NCBI GenBank assembly: GCA_002422865.1
Contig: DITN01000036.1
Span: 8,246-72,245 of the forward strand
DNA: 64,000 nucleotides
DNA from: Bacteroidetes bacterium UBA6183
GTDB lineage: Bacteria > Bacteroidota > Bacteroidia > UKL13-3
Direction of reading: 5' to 3'
A model generated the notes under the pieces. That model searched no databases. It had not been told where the DNA came from and was given only the letters and a program-made list of their open reading frames with translations. This document shows, piece by piece, positions 22,061 through 30,910 of this stretch. How positions within the stretch are numbered: position 1 is the stretch's first letter; every line of letters starts with the position of its first letter. The translations under genes and the position numbers were made by a program.

Positions 22061-24160
22061 TTACTTGGCGATAACTAATTTTTGAGTTGAAGTTTGACCG
22101 TCTGTAGTAATCGCTACAAAGTATACACCAGCTTCTAAGTTAGCAACATCAACTTGTGTGTTGTTAAATTCTACCAACTGATTTGCAACTACTTCTTTAC
22201 CGCTTATGTCGAATACGCGAACATAACCGTGACGACCTGCATTTGGAGAGGCAATTGAGAAAGATGTAGAAGCAGGATTTGGATAAACCGCAGCCTTAAC
22301 ACTGTTTTCGTTTTCGCCTAAACCAATAGCATAGTATGCTGTTCTTTCTGCACTAGCAGATTGAATTACATTTTTGGTTACTTTATTTTGTACAAATACA
22401 ATAACTTCTAAATCATCGAACTCTTCAACAGAATGCTCTGTAGCCAAGTTAATTGGACTTTGACCATTAGGTGCTAAACGGTAGTTACCTGGGAACTCGT
22501 ATGCCAAAGTGAATGATTTCTCAACACCTAAAGCTAAACCTCCTGTAAGTACAGTACCATTTTGGCTAGGTACCATCTTTTTCATTACATGAAGAAACTC
22601 TCTTTCGCCATTCGATTTTAGATTATCTGTAGTTTTACCTTCAATAATTGCTACATGTAGCACATTGTTATCACCGGTAATGTTAACTGCTGATTTTAAT
22701 TTAATATCAGCTGTAACTGTTTTTCCAAAAACTTTGTAAGTAGCATCAATTTCAATTTCAGAAGGAACTGCTTGGAACTGGTTAAATATCGCGTTAGTGA
22801 AAGATGATGCATTTTGGTCCCATTTACCATCAACTTCCATTCTAGGAATTGAATTGATTGCATAATAATTTCTTCTAGCTACACTCTCTGTGGTTGAATA
22901 TGGATCACCTGTACCAGGAAAATCTTGTTGATATTTAATAGATGTAAATAAGTTTTTATCTCTAGCTGCAACTACACTTTTGTAATTTGCATTACCTGGA
23001 GCACAAGGACCACAAGTTGAAGATGAGAAAATTTCATGTAGTGATTTACGTAGGTTTTCTGCAATAATGACATATTTGGTCAAAGCATCGTTTGATGTAA
23101 CTTCATCCGCACCACCATTAATATTGGTAGCCCATACTTTTAACATTTTTGAACCATCCGCATTACTCACTAATGGGGTTGGGTGAGTGAATTCATAAGA
23201 ACCTCCACTTGCAGCAATGTTTAATCCTGTTAGATTGGCTGATACTACTGCTTCTGTTTCGAATTGGTAGTTAATTGTTAATGAAGTAACAGTCTCGCTA
23301 CCCAAGTTTCTTAAACTACCATAAATTTTTGTTGGTTTGTTTAAACCAAGTGCTTCGTTATTTACTAGGAAAACTGATAAATCTTTCGCTGGTTGAGCAC
23401 CACTGAAAAACTCATAATATTTGTTATCGGAAGCGTCAAACAAATTGGTTTGGAAATTATTAGCACCCACGTTTGGTGATCCGGCAACATTGTACGCTGT
23501 AGTACTGTTTATCTGCATACCAGCTGATATCTTTACATTATTACCACAAATTCCAGTTGCAGAAGTACAAAGCGTTTTCATGTCAACAATGTAAAATTTA
23601 TTGGAGGTCTCCTCCAGTACAACTGCCCAATATGTCCAACCTGTAGAAATGTTAGGCTCAGAGAACATGTTATATTGAATCCAAAATTGTCTATTTGGTG
23701 ATGTACCTATTGTTTTAGTAATAATTGAACTATTATAAGTTGTAGTACCACTAACCCAACTTGATGGCTTTACACCCAAAACATTTATTGAGTTATCAGG
23801 CACTGCAGCGCTTGGTAATGTTGTATTACCATAAGCAGGAAGTACAGTTGATGCTGTATCAAACGTAACACTACCAGAGTTTGAGGCCTTAAAATGTGTG
23901 TAAGCATTCCCATTGAATGTAAAAGAGAAAGGTAATTGAGTAGATGCAGTGTATGTCGCAGCTGCTGTTCCGTTACCTGTCCAAAGTGATACCCAACCAT
24001 TTGATAATGGTCCACCTGTTGCAGTGGCAGGATTCTCGCCTTCAGCATTTAATCCTTTCGGATTTCCGCCTGCAATACCTAATGCGTAGTATTGAGCATT
24101 GGCATTGTTCGCAAAAAGAAGCAATGCTCCCGTTGCTAATGATAGTAATTGTTTTTTCAT
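22061..24160 (-). CDS. T9SS-secreted protein with Omp28-like CxxC domain
   Basis: SpI ANA-Q; HEIFSSSTCGPC; LHVMKKMVP; CTD VYPNPA...LEAGVYFV...KLVI. Confidence 0.85.
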   Translation of the reverse strand: MKKQLLSLATGALLLFANNANAQYYALGIAGGNPKGLNAEGENPATATGGPLSNGWVSLWTGNGTAAATYTASTQLPFSFTFNGNAYTHFKASNSGSVTFDTASTVLPAYGNTTLPSAAVPDNSINVLGVKPSSWVSGTTTYNSSIITKTIGTSPNRQFWIQYNMFSEPNISTGWTYWAVVLEETSNKFYIVDMKTLCTSATGICGNNVKISAGMQINSTTAYNVAGSPNVGANNFQTNLFDASDNKYYEFFSGAQPAKDLSVFLVNNEALGLNKPTKIYGSLRNLGSETVTSLTINYQFETEAVVSANLTGLNIAASGGSYEFTHPTPLVSNADGSKMLKVWATNINGGADEVTSNDALTKYVIIAENLRKSLHEIFSSSTCGPCAPGNANYKSVVAARDKNLFTSIKYQQDFPGTGDPYSTTESVARRNYYAINSIPRMEVDGKWDQNASSFTNAIFNQFQAVPSEIEIDATYKVFGKTVTADIKLKSAVNITGDNNVLHVAIIEGKTTDNLKSNGEREFLHVMKKMVPSQNGTVLTGGLALGVEKSFTLAYEFPGNYRLAPNGQSPINLATEHSVEEFDDLEVIVFVQNKVTKNVIQSASAERTAYYAIGLGENENSVKAAVYPNPASTSFSIASPNAGRHGYVRVFDISGKEVVANQLVEFNNTQVDVANLEAGVYFVAITTDGQTSTQKLVIAK

Positions 24161-24320: not shown

Positions 24321-25007
24321 ATGAAAAAACTTGTATACATACTTGGACTAATTTTTACAATAGGTAGTGCTTCTGCCCAAATGTCCTTTAACAACAAAAA
24401 TGTGAGTGTGAGTGGATGGGGGAGCGATTTAGAACCTAAAGACGCACAATGTGTAATGACCAACAATTCATCAACTTCAGCCGACTCTATGATTAATTGG
24501 TCGATTGTAACTTTTGATATTCCAAGTGGATGGCAGTTTGATTTCTGTGACCCATATGATTGCATTGTGAACCTTGGTTTAGGCTTTTCCAGCACTTTTA
24601 AACTTAAAGTTGGTGCGTCAGGGCCGTTAAAGGGACAATTTTACACTAAAGGAAATGCAGGAAACGCAACAATCAAAATCCGTTTAGCTTATGCCAACGG
24701 ATCGCATGATGCAGATACCATTACTTTGATGGCTAAAGGTTGGGCAACCGGTTTAAGCAACCTAAAAAAACAAAGTGAAGTTACTTTCTTCCCTAATCCT
24801 GCAAAAGACTTGATTACTTTAAAATACCCAACAACTAAAGCAATTGATGTAACTGTTTACAACGTTTTAGGTGCAAAAGTAAAATCATTTACACACAGTA
24901 GTAATGAAACATCGCTAAACATTAGTGATTTGGAAAAAGGATTATACTTCATTAGGTTTAATGATAACGGAAACATAGTCTCTAAATCATTCACTAAATC
25001 TGAATAA
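24321..25007 (+). CDS. Small T9SS-secreted protein (Ig-like domain + type A CTD)
   Basis: SpI ASA-Q; CTD FFPNPA...LEKGLYFI...SFTK. Confidence 0.85.
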   Translation: MKKLVYILGLIFTIGSASAQMSFNNKNVSVSGWGSDLEPKDAQCVMTNNSSTSADSMINWSIVTFDIPSGWQFDFCDPYDCIVNLGLGFSSTFKLKVGASGPLKGQFYTKGNAGNATIKIRLAYANGSHDADTITLMAKGWATGLSNLKKQSEVTFFPNPAKDLITLKYPTTKAIDVTVYNVLGAKVKSFTHSSNETSLNISDLEKGLYFIRFNDNGNIVSKSFTKSE

Positions 25008-25312: not shown

Positions 25313-25813
25313 ATGAAAAAAGTACTTTATTTAGCGTTAGCCTCTCTTGCATTTGCATGCGGACAAAGCAACAATCAAACAGGCGCTCAAACCGACAGCA
25401 CCGTTACGGAACAAACTGTTGCTAAAACAGAAAATTTTGGTGATCCAATAACTGCTGATAGCGCAATATCTATCGAGGAAATGAAAACTTTAATGGGTGA
25501 CAAAAAAGAATTAGCAGTTAAAGTTACTGCCCCTGTTGATGCCGTTTGCCAGAAAAAAGGTTGCTGGATGGAATTAAAAGCCGCAGACGGAACCACTATG
25601 CGTGTTACCTTTAAAGATTACGGTTTTTTTGTACCCAAAGATTGTAATGGCAAAACTGCTACTGTTTTGGGTGTAGCTAAAGTAGAAGAAACATCAATAG
25701 CCGATTTAAAAGAATATGCTAAAGATGATGGACAAGGTGAAGCAGAGATTGCAGCTATTACTGAGCCTAAAAAAGAGTTAGTATTTGAAGCAAGTGGTGT
25801 AATCTTACAATAA
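25313..25813 (+). CDS. DUF4920 lipoprotein
   Basis: Lipobox AFAC; VCQKKGCWM; FKDYGFFVPKD. Confidence 0.85.
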   Translation: MKKVLYLALASLAFACGQSNNQTGAQTDSTVTEQTVAKTENFGDPITADSAISIEEMKTLMGDKKELAVKVTAPVDAVCQKKGCWMELKAADGTTMRVTFKDYGFFVPKDCNGKTATVLGVAKVEETSIADLKEYAKDDGQGEAEIAAITEPKKELVFEASGVILQ

Positions 25814-26316
25814 TGAATGTTAAAACCACCCTTACAACACTTTGTTTATTGATAGCTTTTGTGGTGGCGTTTGTTGCTTGCAATGAGACCAAAACTTCTC
25901 CAAAACAAGAAGCATCTGTAACAGCAGACTCAGCGTTAAACGATTCTGCAGCATCGTGTGATGCTCCTTCCTCTACCCGTTATCCAAACCAAGACAAGCC
26001 TATGGCTTTGATGATGCGCCAAATGGCAGATAATGCTCAGAAAATGAAAAATAAATTGGAAGCAGGAGAAAAAATTGATGCAGGAACATTTCCATTTATT
26101 CGTTTTCATTTGGTAGAACCAACAGACCCAAATGTGTTGCAACCTCAGTTTTATGAAAATGCACGTGTGTTTCAAGTAGCTCATAAAGCATTGGTAAATG
26201 CACCGTTAGAAAAACAAAAAGAAATGTACACCGCATATATTAATCAGTGCATTAATTGTCACCAAACGTATTGCAGTGGACCATTGAAAAGAATTAGAAA
26301 ATTAGTATTAAACTAA
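25813..26316 (+). CDS. Lipoprotein, monoheme c-type cytochrome-like (C-terminal CxxCH)
   Basis: Lipobox FVAC; helical body; CINCH near the C-terminus; TAATG overlap with the DUF4920 gene. Confidence 0.65.
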   Translation: MNVKTTLTTLCLLIAFVVAFVACNETKTSPKQEASVTADSALNDSAASCDAPSSTRYPNQDKPMALMMRQMADNAQKMKNKLEAGEKIDAGTFPFIRFHLVEPTDPNVLQPQFYENARVFQVAHKALVNAPLEKQKEMYTAYINQCINCHQTYCSGPLKRIRKLVLN

Positions 26317-26392: not shown

Positions 26393-27370
26393 TTATCTAT
26401 ACATTACGGATTTAACAGCCTTAACCACCTTGTCAACACTAGGTAAAAAAGCCTGCACAAAAGTTGGGGCATAACCTAAAGGTGTATCTTCCGTTGTAAC
26501 ACGTCTGATAGGAGCATCCAAGTAATCAAATGCATTTTTTTGCACCATGTAAGTAATTTCACTGCTAATACTAGCCAATGGCCAAGCCTCTTCAACTATT
26601 ACTAGGCGATTGGTTTTCTTTACCGATTCAACAACGGTATCATAATCTATCGGACGAACAGTACGTAAGTCAATCACCTCAACACTAATTCCATCTTTAG
26701 CTAACTCTTCAGCAGCTTGATAAACAACTTTAATAATTTTACCAAAGCTTACGATTGTTACATCTGTTCCTTCACGTTTTATATCCGCTTTCCCAATTGG
26801 TAAATAATATTCTTCCTCCGGTACTTCTCCTTTATCACCATACATCTGCTCACTTTCCATAAAAATAACAGGGTCGTTATCCAATATGGCCGATTTTAAT
26901 AAACCTTTTGCATCATAAGGATTTGATGGCACAACCACTTTTAAACCCGGGCAGTTTGCGTACCAATTTTCAAAAGCTTGAGAGTGTTGCGCACCTAATT
27001 GGCCCGCTGAGCCTGTTGGACCACGAAAAACCATTGGGATATTAAATTGGCCGCCACTCATTTGGTACATTTTAGCAGCTGCATTAATCACTTGATCTAT
27101 CGCTACCAAACTAAAATTAAAAGTCATGAACTCAACGATCGGCCTCAAGCCATTCATTGCAGCACCAACACCAATACCTGCAAAACCTAATTCTGCTATT
27201 GGTGTATCTATAATTCTTTTCGCACCAAATTCTTCAAGCATACCTTGACTAACTTTATAGGCACCATTGTACTCGGCTACTTCTTCACCCAATAAAAAAA
27301 TATTAGGGTCTTTGCGCATTTCTTCGCTTAATGCTTCGCGCAAAGCTTCTCTAAATTGAATTGATCTCAT
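26393..27370 (-). CDS. pdhB: Pyruvate dehydrogenase E1 beta subunit
   Basis: GEEVAEYNGAYKVSQG, DTPIAE, GAQHSQ, VIDLRTVRP. Confidence 0.93.
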   Translation of the reverse strand: MRSIQFREALREALSEEMRKDPNIFLLGEEVAEYNGAYKVSQGMLEEFGAKRIIDTPIAELGFAGIGVGAAMNGLRPIVEFMTFNFSLVAIDQVINAAAKMYQMSGGQFNIPMVFRGPTGSAGQLGAQHSQAFENWYANCPGLKVVVPSNPYDAKGLLKSAILDNDPVIFMESEQMYGDKGEVPEEEYYLPIGKADIKREGTDVTIVSFGKIIKVVYQAAEELAKDGISVEVIDLRTVRPIDYDTVVESVKKTNRLVIVEEAWPLASISSEITYMVQKNAFDYLDAPIRRVTTEDTPLGYAPTFVQAFLPSVDKVVKAVKSVMYR

Positions 27371-27513: not shown

Positions 27514-28194
27514 TTAAAATGCTATGGATAGTTTAACCTCCAATTGGTTTGATTTTAAGGACATTGATAACGGAATTTCGAGAAAGGTACATAGCGTTTT
27601 TACCGTCCAAAGACCGGGTTGGTCAGGCATGTTATTGATGTTAGGTATATCGGAGTTATTTACAAAATCAATGGTCTCTTCAGATGGAATTTCTGAACAC
27701 ACATTGGTCAAGGTTAACTGAATGGTATTATTAGAACCTTTTGTAAGATTTACGAGCACATACTCACCAACAGGAGTAAATTCTATAATGTTTAATAGCA
27801 GGTTTTTTAAAATGCTTTGTAACATTACTTTATCTGCTTTTACCATAACATTGTCGTTCAGCTCTAACATTAAATCAAGATGTTGTTTTTCAACTTCATT
27901 GCTAAAGTAATTAAGCTCATCTTTTATCAAATCGGCCAAATCTACATTTTGCGGAACAGGGGTAATGTTTTCGGTATAAAACTTAAGCCACCAAGCGAGG
28001 TTCTCGCTGCGCAACAAAGCTTTTTTTGAAAGTTGATGAACGATTTGTATGTAGCTTTTTTTGTCGTCATCTACCAATTTATCAAAATGATTGGCCAATA
28101 GGTCGGAAAACCCAATAATACCATTAAAAGGATTACGCACATGGTGCGTTAACCGTGATAGCAATTGTTTATCTACAGTGGCCATTGAGTTCAT
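27514..28194 (-). CDS. Sensor-less HisKA + degenerate HATPase protein (pseudokinase)
   Basis: H-box THHVRNP and N-box KNLLLNIIEFT present; no DxGxG or GxGLG; no TM or sensor domain. Confidence 0.75.
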   Translation of the reverse strand: MNSMATVDKQLLSRLTHHVRNPFNGIIGFSDLLANHFDKLVDDDKKSYIQIVHQLSKKALLRSENLAWWLKFYTENITPVPQNVDLADLIKDELNYFSNEVEKQHLDLMLELNDNVMVKADKVMLQSILKNLLLNIIEFTPVGEYVLVNLTKGSNNTIQLTLTNVCSEIPSEETIDFVNNSDIPNINNMPDQPGLWTVKTLCTFLEIPLSMSLKSNQLEVKLSIAF

Positions 28195-28962
28195 TTAAAG
28201 CGTTGATGTTAGCTTAAATTTATTTTTGATAATTGAAAAATAGTTTCGGCTAACCTCGAACGGTTGGTCGACTCCCTTTAGATATAAAATGCCCGTGTCA
28301 TAAGTGCCTCTTTCAATTTTTAATACATTATGCAGGTTTACTATGGTTGATCTGTGCACGCGGAAAAAATCATCTTGAGGCAGTTTATCTTCCCAAAGTT
28401 TAATTAATCCATACGTAGTAAAAGAGGTACCATCATTAAGCGCAACATAGGTATAATTTCCCTTTGCCTCTATAAAATTAATATCTTTAATTTTAATGAA
28501 TTTCATCTCGTTATCAATATTCATTAAAACCATGTTATCTATACCAAACTTTGATGAGTGTTTAGCCGGCTTTTCTTCAAAATCAGCATCCTCAGCATCT
28601 TCAAACACATCCAAACGACTAAGCGCCTTTTTCAACCTATCGAAGCTAATTGGCTTAACTATGTAATCTATAGTATTATATTCAAATGCTTTAACGGCAA
28701 AATCAGGAAATGCTGTAATAAATAACACCTTGGTTTTAGGACCAACATATTTGATTAAATCCAATGCATTCGCCCCTTTTAAATCAATATCCATAAATAC
28801 CAAGTCTACCTTGGGATTACTTTTGATTAAAGACTCAGCATCTTTTATGTTAGATGCTTCACCCAGAAGTTCGATGTATGAAAAATCTTTTAAAAACTCT
28901 TTCAGAAGCGTTACCGATGAGGCGTCATCTTCAATGATTAAGGCATTAATAGTAGTTACCAT
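28195..28962 (-). CDS. LytTR-family response regulator (copy 1)
   Basis: Receiver EDD..FMDID..ITA..VKP; LytTR FFRVHRSTIVNL..VSR; ATG 28962 preferred. Confidence 0.92.
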   Translation of the reverse strand: MVTTINALIIEDDASSVTLLKEFLKDFSYIELLGEASNIKDAESLIKSNPKVDLVFMDIDLKGANALDLIKYVGPKTKVLFITAFPDFAVKAFEYNTIDYIVKPISFDRLKKALSRLDVFEDAEDADFEEKPAKHSSKFGIDNMVLMNIDNEMKFIKIKDINFIEAKGNYTYVALNDGTSFTTYGLIKLWEDKLPQDDFFRVHRSTIVNLHNVLKIERGTYDTGILYLKGVDQPFEVSRNYFSIIKNKFKLTSTL

Positions 28963-29106
28963 ATGACAATCACTTTTATAGTCCGTGAAGAAAATGATAT
29001 TTATTGTACTATCAAAACAAAACAATTAAAAATATTAAAATAAACACACATTTATTGCAAATAAATAACACTTTATTCCCTTAAGTTTGCATTTTATATC
29101 TTAAAG

Positions 29107-29985
29107 ATGAACTTGTTTACTGCTGAAAACTGGAATGATTATGAGCTGCTTGATTGTGGCGACTTGGAAAAGTTGGAACGTTTTGGAAATGTTGTTTTAC
29201 GCAGGCCTGAGCCGCAAGCACTTTGGCAAAAACAATACAGTGAACAAGAATGGAATAAACTTGCTGATGTAAAGTTTATACAGAAAGGCAGTCATGCAGG
29301 AGAATGGAAAAAAAACCGCGTTGTTCCGGATAAATGGCAAATAGGCTACAAACATCAAGATTTGGCTATTAAGTTTAACTTATCGTTAACATCATTTAAG
29401 CACGTAGGAATTTTTCCTGAGCAAGCTTTAAACTGGGATTTTATTTTTAGCACCATTAAAAATCTTAAAGTAGAACAACCACGCGTGCTTAATTTATTTG
29501 CCTACACAGGTGGCGCTTCGTTGGCAGCGAAAGCAGCAGGTGCAGATGTAACACATGTTGATAGCATCAAACAAGTTATCAATTGGAGCCGCGAAAACAT
29601 GGAATCATCAAACTTAAAAGATATACGTTGGGTAGTTGAGGATGCATTAAAATTTGTGAAAAGAGAGGTTAAACGCGGAAAAAAATACAATGGTATCATT
29701 TTAGACCCACCTGCCTATGGAATTGGCGCAAATGGTGAGCGTTGGAAACTGGAAGATTCTATTCACGAAATTTTAGCTGATATATCAAACCTGTTGGATG
29801 AAAAACACTTTTTAGTACTTAACGTATACTCTTTGGGATTAAGCCCATTAATATTGGAAAACTTGATTAAAACCAATTTTAAAAATGTAGAAAATCTAGA
29901 TTTAGGAGAAGTGTATTTAAATGCACAAAGCGGTATCAAATTACCTCTTGGCATTTTGGCCCGATTTAACAATATCAATTCATAA
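29107..29985 (+). CDS. Class I SAM-dependent methyltransferase (RlmI/RlmK-like)
   Basis: HVGIFPEQ, LNLFAYTGGAS, IILDPPAYG; TAAGTTTG box at 29082-29089. Confidence 0.82.
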   Translation: MNLFTAENWNDYELLDCGDLEKLERFGNVVLRRPEPQALWQKQYSEQEWNKLADVKFIQKGSHAGEWKKNRVVPDKWQIGYKHQDLAIKFNLSLTSFKHVGIFPEQALNWDFIFSTIKNLKVEQPRVLNLFAYTGGASLAAKAAGADVTHVDSIKQVINWSRENMESSNLKDIRWVVEDALKFVKREVKRGKKYNGIILDPPAYGIGANGERWKLEDSIHEILADISNLLDEKHFLVLNVYSLGLSPLILENLIKTNFKNVENLDLGEVYLNAQSGIKLPLGILARFNNINS

Positions 29986-30011
29986 AAAAATCCTGCTCAC
30001 GCAGGATTTTA
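29984..30011. terminator. Bidirectional intrinsic terminator
   Basis: AAAAAAATCCTGC-TCAC-GCAGGATTTT. Confidence 0.85.
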
Positions 30012-30016
30012 GTTTA

Positions 30017-30754
30017 TTACATTTTGTATTTCTTTTTAATTTGAAAGAAGAAGTTTCGGCTTATTTCAAAAGGCTTGTCGATACCTTTTAAATATAACCT
30101 TCCGGTATCATTTGCCCACTTCTCTATTTTCGTAACATTGTGCAAATTTACAATGGTTGAGCGATGAATTTGTATAAACAAATCTTCAGGCAATTTAGTA
30201 TCCCAATTTTTAATGGAGTTATAGGTTACACTAAGTTTTCCATCAACCAAGTTAACTTTGGTGTAGTTTCCATAAGCCTCAATATAGTTGATGTCCTTTA
30301 TGCGCACAAAACTCATCTTGTTGTCAAAACTTAAAAGTATGATATGATCAGCAGTGAACTTAGCATTATAATCATCCTCAAAAGTAGTATCTTCCCACTT
30401 ATTGGTTACTTTCTCTATGGCTTTGGTTAACCGCTCTAAGCTAATTGGTTTAAGAAGATAATCAACAGCATTTAACTCAAAAGCTTTTATGGCGAAATCG
30501 GTATGAGATGTAATGAAAATAACCATCGGTTGATATCCAATGGTTTTTAGCAAATCTAAAGAGGTTAACCCATTTAAATCAACATCTAAAAACAAAAGAT
30601 CGGGACGCTCTTCACTAATAATGTTTCTTGCTTCCTCAAAATCTGCTGCTTCACCAATTATTTGTATTTTGTCAAAAGTGCCCAATAGTTTCTTTAGGAC
30701 AATACGCATACTGTCTACATCATCAACTATCACTGCTTTTATTATGTCTTTCAT
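30017..30754 (-). CDS. LytTR-family response regulator (copy 2)
   Basis: Receiver VDD..FLDVD..ITS..LKP; FIQIHRSTIVNL..ISR. Confidence 0.92.
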   Translation of the reverse strand: MKDIIKAVIVDDVDSMRIVLKKLLGTFDKIQIIGEAADFEEARNIISEERPDLLFLDVDLNGLTSLDLLKTIGYQPMVIFITSHTDFAIKAFELNAVDYLLKPISLERLTKAIEKVTNKWEDTTFEDDYNAKFTADHIILLSFDNKMSFVRIKDINYIEAYGNYTKVNLVDGKLSVTYNSIKNWDTKLPEDLFIQIHRSTIVNLHNVTKIEKWANDTGRLYLKGIDKPFEISRNFFFQIKKKYKM

Positions 30755-30870: not shown

Positions 30871-30910
30871 AAAAAAACCTGCATGTTTTAACATACAGGT
30901 TTATTTTTTT
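30871..30910 (-). terminator. Intrinsic terminator after lysS
   Basis: AACCTG..ATGTT / AACAT..CAGGTT imperfect stem with A/T runs. Confidence 0.7.

Follow-up and report, generated by a model that had tools for sequence, protein, structure and literature searches.

The window, a 64,000-nucleotide stretch of contig DITN01000036.1 (assembly GCA_002422865.1) from Bacteroidetes bacterium UBA6183, encodes a small protein related to histidine kinases, referred to here as mini-HK, directly behind the gene for a LytTR-type response regulator (regulator B). Mini-HK keeps the phospho-acceptor histidine of HisKA kinases, and both the acidic residue that normally follows this histidine (H+1) and the motifs that normally bind ATP have degenerated. 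The reading of mini-HK as a pseudokinase lacking the ATP-binding and H+1 determinants is well supported by its sequence and its evolution, and mini-HK probably removes or passes on phosphate rather than making it. In the reading that we favour, with a probability of roughly 0.4, mini-HK would be an accessory kinase-dead modulator of regulator B, either a dedicated phosphatase or a phosphoryl sink. The features on which this argument turns are as follows.

27514..28194, minus strand: mini-HK gene, 226 residues from the first ATG, stop TAA at 27514-27516 (open reading frame list, Pfam, homologues, AlphaFold)
27976..28170, minus strand: predicted DHp helical hairpin, mini-HK residues 9-73 (helices 9-39 and 42-73), the most conserved region (AlphaFold, alignment, nonsynonymous distances)
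27517..27957, minus strand: predicted CA-like alpha/beta domain, mini-HK residues 80-226, GHKL fold with degenerate ATP motifs (AlphaFold, Foldseek, Pfam)
28195..28962, minus strand: LytTR regulator B, 255 residues from M22, receiver plus LytTR domain (Response_reg 58.4 bits, LytTR 77.4 bits)

The mini-HK gene and its coupling to regulator B

An earlier reading of the window, made from the sequence alone without database searches (the sequence-only reading), had placed a 226-residue open reading frame with a HisKA plus HATPase core at 27514-28194, with which the open reading frame list and Pfam agree. It had also described a TAA-ATG junction with a gap of 0 nucleotides between regulator B and mini-HK. 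This holds for the first ATG of mini-HK, which directly adjoins the TAA of regulator B (28195-28197), but the conserved start is likely M4 at 28185 ('MATVDKQ'), 9 nucleotides past that stop. This second ATG is the start in most orthologues as well as in the gene as called in the assembly from which the window comes, and it gives a protein of 223 residues in which H17, numbered here from the first ATG, becomes H14. Since the stop of regulator B adjoins the start of mini-HK, the two genes are taken to form one operon. The distance between the B stop and the mini-HK start ranged from -1 (a stop/start overlap) to +9 nucleotides in all 25 genomes examined, and this narrow spacing is consistent with translational coupling of the two genes. 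For regulator B itself, the open reading frame that reaches a TTG at 29025 is an artefact of the ORF finder, which adds 21 residues (28963-29025, minus strand), and orthologues place the conserved start at the ATG (M22) at 28962, where the protein begins MVTTINAL.

Domain content and predicted structure of mini-HK

The Pfam profile HisKA (PF00512) matched residues 10-57 of mini-HK with 28.2 bits against a cut-off of 26.9, and it matched all 22 family members compared. HATPase_c scored 18.6 bits, below its cut-off of 26.4, and covered only positions 2-55 of the 111 in the profile, that is, from the N-box to the G1 box. The profile alignment that the sequence-only reading had proposed therefore left HisKA above and HATPase_c below the cut-off. 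All NCBIfam kinase models scored far under their cut-offs on mini-HK; their best-scoring stretches mostly ended at residues 145-175, and one of the 25 matches listed reached residue 201.

The AlphaFold model of mini-HK (mean pLDDT 84.9, pTM 0.81) consists of two long helices followed by an alpha/beta sandwich and nothing more. Helix 1 starts at residue 9 of the model, so that neither a sensor nor an N-terminal extension is present, and no hydrophobic or membrane segment was found in the sequence or the model, as the sequence-only reading had claimed. Foldseek matched the model best, at TM-scores of 0.6-0.79, to DHp-CA cores, among them DivL, RetS and the structures of HK853 bound to RR468. A profile search of the sequences in the Protein Data Bank with the mini-HK family found ThkA, RetS and HK853, the DHp-CA part of RetS with an E-value of about 3e-10. 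Among these structural and sequence matches, 6dk7/6dk8 (RetS) and 4q20 (DivL) are repurposed kinases. As far as the model shows, mini-HK would thus have a standard DHp-CA fold, nearest to HK853 in the RR468 complexes, DivL and RetS.

Degeneration of the catalytic motifs

The nearest relatives of mini-HK outside its clade are ordinary Bacteroidota HisKA kinases with 30-38% identity. An exhaustive search covering 1.84 billion proteins supplied the 150 best-matching representatives, which were aligned to the clade profile. Their catalytic motifs were tallied and compared with the following elements of mini-HK.

28141..28146, minus strand: H17 (CAC, 28144-28146) and H18 (CAT, 28141-28143), the predicted phospho-acceptor and the H+1 position
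27772..27804, minus strand: N-box remnant N131-LLL-N135-IIE138-FTP141, with both Asn kept and Lys changed to Glu
27691..27705, minus strand: degenerate G1 box N164-V-C-S-E168 in place of D-x-G-x-G
27604..27630, minus strand: degenerate G2 box and end of the ATP lid, M189-P-D-Q-P-G194-L-W196-T, with the family-specific MPxxPGLW

H17 stands at the HisKA phospho-acceptor position, which is His in 149 of the 150 neighbouring kinases, and among the 86 close and 17 distant clade members it is kept in all 101 sequences that cover the site. The next position is Asp or Glu in 145 of the neighbours versus H18 in mini-HK; the three neighbours with His there all belong to the mini-HK clade, and His occupies the position in 84 of 84 close family members.

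The two N-box asparagines have remained, N131 aligning with Asn in 148 and N135 in 145 of the 150 neighbours, and both are invariant in the 86 close members. E138, on the other hand, stands where 147 neighbours have the N-box Lys (Lys or Arg), and this position is Glu or Asp in 86 of 86 family members. The three G1 positions that are Asp, Gly and Gly in 141, 140 and 139 of the neighbours are N164, C166 and E168 in mini-HK; N164 is shared by 85 of 86 family members, with positions 165-167 variable. In the G2 box, Q192 occupies a position that is Gly in 141 of the neighbours, and G194 is retained (Gly in 142). P190 replaces the first G2 Gly as read by eye from the alignment, a position that lies outside the tallies. 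M189, P190, P193, G194 and W196 are conserved in at least 82 of the 86 members, and W196 in 16 of the 17 members of the wider clade.

The claims of the sequence-only reading about these motifs can be assessed from the tallies. It had reported that H17 is kept and followed by His, that G1 reads NVCSE and that G2 is reduced, all of which the alignment bears out. Its statement that the N-box is kept applies to the two asparagines but not to the Lys, which has become Glu138. It had also noted that N21 is kept at H+4, the position associated with phosphatase activity. R20 (H+3) and N21/S21 (H+4) are indeed fully conserved in the 86 close members, with N21 in 78 and Ser in eight of them, but the 17 wider-clade members have Gly in 13, Ser in two, Asn in one and Cys in one, so that the sister lineages mostly carry Gly or occasionally Cys. 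The conservation that it had expected of H17 and N21 together is accordingly found for H17, which is invariant, and for N21 in the close family only.

The functions that it had attributed to these two positions are as published: in four HisKA kinases, namely CrdS, two paralogues and HK853, the H+1 acid is required for autokinase but not phosphatase activity, and Thr or Asn at H+4 is required for phosphatase but not kinase activity (PMC3510030). Since the H+4 Asn is limited to the close family, and since Gly or Ser at H+4 is also common in ordinary neighbouring kinases, this residue gives a weak argument for a phosphatase.

Conservation and selection

A search of 5.8 billion proteins returned 77 homologues of mini-HK, 73 of which are 48-100% identical to it and 208-231 residues long. 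With 77 close homologues that all share one layout, the pattern goes far beyond what chance would give. Among 22 spread-out members, 33 alignment columns were invariant, mostly in the DHp: L12, S13, T16, H17, H18, R20, P22-G25, I27-F29, D31 and L32 in its first part, and S56, A59, L61, R62, E64, N65, W68 and L70 further on. D121, N131, N135, G194, W196 and L201 are the invariant residues of the CA-like domain. The motif NG(I/L)(I/L)GF(S)(D/E)LL, on the receiver-contacting face of helix 1, persists through the wider clade, as does W196.

Nonsynonymous (dN) and synonymous (dS) distances were calculated by the Nei-Gojobori method for 12 same-genus orthologues, and the values given here are those of the closest pair. 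For mini-HK as a whole, dN was 0.096 versus a dS of about 1.9, which is saturated. The DHp had a dN of 0.026, and the CA-like domain had a dN of 0.137 versus a dS of about 2.1. Since dS is saturated even in the closest genome pair, we give only a bound on the dN/dS ratio (omega at most about 0.15, an overestimate for the same reason) instead of an exact value. The fact that dN lies far below dS indicates purifying selection on mini-HK, and the dN/dS comparison called for by the sequence-only reading gives no sign of a pseudogene in this genome. Regulator B had a dN of 0.012 in the same pair; mini-HK evolves about 8 times faster than regulator B, and within mini-HK the CA half outpaces the DHp half about fivefold. 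By these estimates, selection preserves mainly the DHp of mini-HK. The candidate interpretation of the gene as a decaying pseudogene in this genome was rejected on dN/dS and conservation.

Distribution, gene losses and parallel decay

All mini-HK records are metagenome-assembled genomes labelled Bacteroidota or Bacteroidia, some of them mislabelled Chitinophaga. In the surveyed GTDB order, which comprises 119 species genomes in one family, the locus arrangement is specific to that one family of uncultured Bacteroidia. The order lysS, regulator A (a second LytTR regulator), methyltransferase, regulator B, mini-HK and pdhB recurs in every genome with mini-HK, including those of its most divergent members (30-35% identity), so that the synteny comparison proposed earlier came out in favour of a conserved locus.

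Mini-HK occurs only together with regulator B, whereas regulator B also occurs without mini-HK. In genera g9 and g13, regulator B is followed directly by pdhB, and mini-HK is absent. Since g9 and g13 are nested as sister to g17 in a tree of B rooted with A, this absence represents a loss. Genome G099, which belongs to the window's genus and is 99% complete, has only residues 1-69 and 188-223 of mini-HK left, in different frames, as the result of an internal deletion. This remnant lies in G099:C18 downstream of 9929 (locus L047, 2278-2603), beside an intact regulator B. In G108, the mini-HK gene (G108:C10:11622-12216, locus L040) contains several stop codons, and regulator B is again intact. 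Mini-HK has thus been lost at least three times: in the ancestor of g9 and g13, in G099 and in G108. Frameshifts among orthologues, which the sequence-only reading had named as a mark of pseudogene decay, are therefore present in part: the copy is broken or deleted in 2 of the 15 same-genus genomes and absent from two sister genera, but the frame is intact in the window, in 13 of the 15 genomes of its genus and in three further genera.

The tree divides the wider clade into three groups. Group 1 contains the window type and P0075, which has the H-H pair but an intact G1 box (D-S-G-H-G) and passes HATPase_c. Group 2 contains the g12 and g5 types, both with H-H; g12 keeps the N-box and its Lys and has the G1 sequence D-N-G-K-A, in which the last Gly is gone, and g5 has lost all ATP motifs. 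Group 3, the g17 type, has His followed by Glu or Asp at the H-box, but its N-box, G1 and G2 are all gone. Every mini-HK lineage thus lacks at least one predicted requirement for autophosphorylation, and the tree indicates at least three independent losses of ATP motifs, a parallel decay. P0107 (234 residues, intact boxes) was considered as a functional sensor-less mini-kinase and rejected, as it is cut by a contig end.

Comparison with known systems

The sequence-only reading had invoked a pseudo-histidine kinase that acts as a phosphotransferase, and the precedent is real, comprising ChpT, Spo0B and PhyT (PMC5898713). Mini-HK would function in the manner of this small class of proteins. PhyT (formerly PhyP) of Sphingomonas melonis and related alphaproteobacteria moves phosphoryl groups between receivers (PMC5898713). 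It resembles mini-HK in that it derives from a histidine kinase, has a conserved His and a degenerate ATPase domain, and is encoded next to its regulator; PhyT is a negative regulator (PMC5898713). Unlike mini-HK, PhyT has a membrane anchor and a periplasmic domain, its DHp is of the HisKA_2/HWE type with HRxxN, and its target is PhyR, an anti-anti-sigma regulator. Mini-HK is soluble and sensor-less, has a PF00512 HisKA domain and a LytTR partner, and arose independently in Bacteroidia.

ChpT of Caulobacter and Brucella and Spo0B of Bacillus subtilis share with mini-HK a DHp-like hairpin with a His, an ATP-dead CA-like domain, a length of about 200-230 residues and the lack of a sensor. In its sequence and model, mini-HK appears to have this same layout, namely a hairpin with an invariant His, a CA-like domain with degraded ATP motifs and no sensor. 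Membership of the ChpT, Spo0B or PhyT sequence families was not found, as a Pfam search at E-values up to 1 returned HisKA and HATPase_c only. ChpT retains the acid after the His. The partners also differ, being CtrA/CpdR or Spo0F/Spo0A in those systems versus a LytTR regulator here, and mini-HK is dispensable in some lineages.

RetS of Pseudomonas aeruginosa and DivL of Caulobacter, which are among the best matches to mini-HK, use a kinase core for signalling although it has no normal autokinase activity. However, they are large multi-domain membrane or PAS proteins, DivL has no His, and RetS acts on the kinase GacS. The bifunctional kinases HK853 (with RR468), EnvZ and CrdS, in their phosphatase state, resemble mini-HK in the motif H-x-x-R/K-N/T-P, whose H+4 position is Asn in mini-HK and in most of its close family, and HK853-RR468 is the top structural match. 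Those kinases differ in that they autophosphorylate as well, receive sensor input and retain the H+1 acid and the N, G1 and G2 boxes intact. LytS/LytTR systems (LytSR, BtsSR and AlgZ/FimS-AlgR) have a LytTR-type response regulator as partner as mini-HK does, but their kinases carry the PF06580 His_kinase DHp and a membrane sensor, whereas mini-HK has HisKA (PF00512), and Pfam gave no PF06580 match in it. The pairing of a HisKA DHp with a LytTR regulator is atypical. A literature search found no paper on such a protein in Bacteroidota, an absence that applies to the literature searched and is not proof.

Possible functions of mini-HK

The sequence-only reading had named three candidate functions for mini-HK, a phosphatase, a phosphorelay hub and a kinase inhibitor for LytTR regulators; of the two LytTR regulators at the locus, only B shares the mini-HK operon. 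In the favoured reading, mini-HK would be made in fixed proportion with regulator B through translational coupling and would dock on the receiver of B via the conserved DHp surface. It would lower or buffer the level of phosphorylated B, either by a dephosphorylation aided by H-x-x-R-N or by back-transfer to H17, which would serve as a sink. B would be phosphorylated by another donor, either the kinase of its paralogue A, given the A/B pair, or acetyl phosphate. If phosphorylated B activates its own operon, this arrangement would provide built-in negative feedback, that is, a self-limiting loop. From the sequence we infer that mini-HK neither binds ATP nor autophosphorylates and that it binds the B receiver, and likewise the direction in which phosphoryl groups flow.

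The phospho-site of regulator B (E-D-D, D58, T83 and K103) is kept in all 29 orthologues, including those without mini-HK. Since B keeps the full phospho-site after three losses of mini-HK, B would have another phosphodonor and mini-HK would be accessory. The genome's own phosphotransfer proteins bear on the same question. It contains five Hpt matches, three stand-alone and two inside hybrid kinases, together with five single-domain regulators and five hybrid kinases, three of which lack an Hpt of their own. As three stand-alone Hpt proteins are available for three Hpt-less hybrid kinases, there is no phosphotransferase gap that points to mini-HK, and the argument for a relay from a missing Hpt was rejected because the counts balance. 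The survival of the B phospho-site and the lack of a phosphotransferase shortage together favour an accessory negative role over an obligatory relay.

Several observations weigh against a phosphatase or sink. A read-through fusion of B and mini-HK, modelled as a single chain with the in-frame B stop read as Gly and a paired alignment of nine rows, gave no usable docking (pLDDT 64.7, pTM 0.45), and the confidence of its linker and H-box region was below 50. The invariant N131, N135, N164 and MPxxPGLW of the close family suggest that the pocket could bind something, possibly a nucleotide. The Gly or Cys at H+4 in g12 and g17 implies that a phosphatase dependent on Thr or Asn would not be the function of the whole clade. 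HisKA proteins can often act as phosphatases without the His, so its absolute conservation here fits phosphotransfer better. Finally, PhyT, whose gene likewise adjoins that of its regulator, was at first taken for a phosphatase; this degenerate kinase was then shown to act as a relay phosphotransferase, and phosphatase activity was not detectable in it (PMC5898713).

The last two points lead to a relay of the ChpT, Spo0B or PhyT kind, in which phosphoryl groups would pass from another receiver to H17 and on to B in a multi-step phosphorelay. Regulator A could be the donor, or else a single-domain regulator or a hybrid kinase, of which the genome offers five each. The absolute conservation of the His across lineages in which the rest of the catalytic machinery changed agrees with such a function, as do the two receiver proteins, A and B, conserved at the locus and the degenerate CA-like domain, which according to the model remains folded, like those of ChpT and Spo0B. 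PhyT shows that a degenerate kinase beside a regulator can relay from a single-domain regulator and can also sequester its partner (PMC5898713). However, an obligate step should not be dispensable, and the B phospho-site is intact in at least three lineages without mini-HK. The three stand-alone Hpt proteins already match the three Hpt-less hybrid kinases, and regulator A, as a full transcription factor, would be an unusual intermediate. A relay is the main alternative to the favoured reading, though we regard it as rather unlikely.

Alternatively, mini-HK could act independently of phosphorylation, either by sequestering B, phosphorylated or not, in the manner of PhyT with PhyR or DivL with phosphorylated DivK, or by inhibiting a kinase through a DHp heterodimer, the way in which RetS acts on GacS. 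An input might then be received at the conserved CA-like pocket. The match of the family profile to the RetS DHp-CA and of the model to the DivL and RetS structures is in line with this, and the invariant motifs in the former ATP pocket (N131, N135, E138, N164, E168 and MPxxPGLW) suggest a repurposed surface. The dispensability of mini-HK in some lineages would also be explained. Such binding would nevertheless leave the invariant His and H-box (H-x-x-R-x-P) without need, and DivL has lost its His. Furthermore, the genome contains no close DHp paralogue for a heterodimer, the closest other kinase being 27% identical to mini-HK. A purely binding role appears quite unlikely on these grounds.

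It is very unlikely that mini-HK still functions as a constitutive autokinase through an unusual ATP site and serves as the cognate kinase of B. In favour of this, the operon has the classic arrangement of a regulator plus a kinase, mini-HK retains one G2 Gly and the N-box Asn, which is the ligand of Mg2+, hydrogen bonding is still open to the Asn that stands in for the G1 Asp, and in the relative P0075 the G1 box is intact and HATPase_c exceeds its cut-off. Against this, six independent determinants have changed, among them the phosphate-binding Lys, whose charge is reversed, and the G1 glycines, which are replaced by bulky or acidic residues. The H+1 acid, which was required in the HisKA kinases tested (PMC3510030), is gone, and the residues at G1+1 to G1+3 vary freely in the family. 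Sister lineages keep the gene even after losing the N-box, and B persists without the gene.

A variant of phosphotransfer that we consider decidedly improbable is a shuttle between the two LytTR regulators, in which H17 of the kinase-dead dimer would move phosphoryl groups between A, an ancient orphan regulator, and B, its lineage-specific paralogue, so that one kinase would drive both in a tunable ratio and the former ATP pocket would set the direction. That pocket is now acidic, with the invariant residues and the MPxxPGLW motif listed above, and the conserved proximity of regulator A is what points to a possible link with mini-HK. We know of no such histidine phosphotransferase in the phylum Bacteroidota. 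If the shuttle were true, mini-HK would be a phosphotransferase independent of ChpT, Spo0B and PhyT that links two full-length DNA-binding regulators.

A decaying remnant of a former kinase without present function is hardly credible, since the stop codons in one genome of the genus, the internal deletion in another, the absence from two sister genera and the roughly eightfold faster evolution than that of B stand against a frame that is intact in three more genera and in 13 of the 15 genomes from this genus, 77 close homologues of constant length, a dN far below dS in both the whole protein and the CA-like domain, 33 invariant columns at 48-100% identity and a conserved coupled start.

Regulator A, neighbouring genes and other signalling proteins

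The genes around regulator B and mini-HK are as follows.

26393..27370: pdhB, downstream of mini-HK (Pfam)
29107..29985, plus strand: SAM (S-adenosylmethionine)-dependent, rRNA-type methyltransferase, divergent, between A and B (Pfam Methyltrans_SAM, Cons_hypoth95)
30017..30754, minus strand: LytTR regulator A, 245 residues, a paralogue about 50% identical to B (Pfam)

The two LytTR paralogues A and B, about 50% identical, lie 1 kb apart. Regulator A adjoins no kinase and is found in nearly all genera of the family. A-type matches (about 45-52% identity to B) occur in 86 of the 119 genomes of the order, whereas B-type matches (at least 60%) are confined to six genera. Across genera, the LytTR half of B is nearly invariant, its C-terminus FEVSRNYFSIIKNKFKLTSTL being the same in distant genomes, which implies a strongly conserved DNA target. 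No LytTR-type direct repeats were found in the promoter regions of A and B, only AT-rich inverted repeats, and a promoter scan of the locus was at or near the expectation from shuffled sequence.

The methyltransferase has the same position in loci L001, L002, L024, L025 and L094 and is probably a bystander. In the 31-nucleotide gap between the convergent methyltransferase and A genes, a hairpin with a 10-bp stem (AAAATCCTGC...GCAGGATTTT) lies at 29987-30010 (plus strand) and probably terminates transcription in both directions. Another strong hairpin, which carries a T-run, follows lysS at 30875-30902 (minus strand), which indicates that regulator A has its own transcription unit.

Elsewhere in the genome, there are four PF06580 LytS-type kinases, each beside another LytTR regulator and none at the mini-HK locus. 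Contig C20 carries three LytTR regulators within 18 kb (C20:70070-87707), one of them beside a LytS-type kinase; further orphan LytTR regulators are found at C20:70070 and C20:80314.

Two small abutting genes at 25813-26316 and 25313-25813 (both plus strand) are kept beside pdhB in related genomes. One is DUF4920-like, its homologous neighbour in L094 carrying PF16267. The other encodes 167 residues with a signal-anchor-like N-terminus and a single CxxCH (CINCHQ), which suggests a small c-type cytochrome. Also in the window, 22061-24160 (minus strand) and 24321-25007 (plus strand) encode secreted proteins with ends that appear to be type-IX sorting domains (…VYPNPA…/…FFPNPAKD…).

Significance

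The concept of a pseudo-histidine kinase is already established, and the organisms that carry mini-HK are uncultured. To our knowledge, histidine kinases that keep the His with a dead ATP site are rare, and the known examples, ChpT, Spo0B, PhyT, RetS and DivL, include none from Bacteroidota. Each of these five revealed a non-canonical wiring of two-component signalling. The mini-HK family arose independently of them, and it is very small and soluble, so that biochemistry and structure determination should be easy.

The family also flags a problem of annotation, as its members are named 'HAMP domain-containing histidine kinase', 'signal transduction histidine kinase' or 'hypothetical protein' in the databases; the first two names imply a kinase activity that is very probably absent from these proteins. 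The clade further offers a natural series that runs from an intact G1 box to the loss of N, G1 and G2 together, along with natural knock-outs in which the regulator survives, and it shows a route from kinase to pseudokinase.

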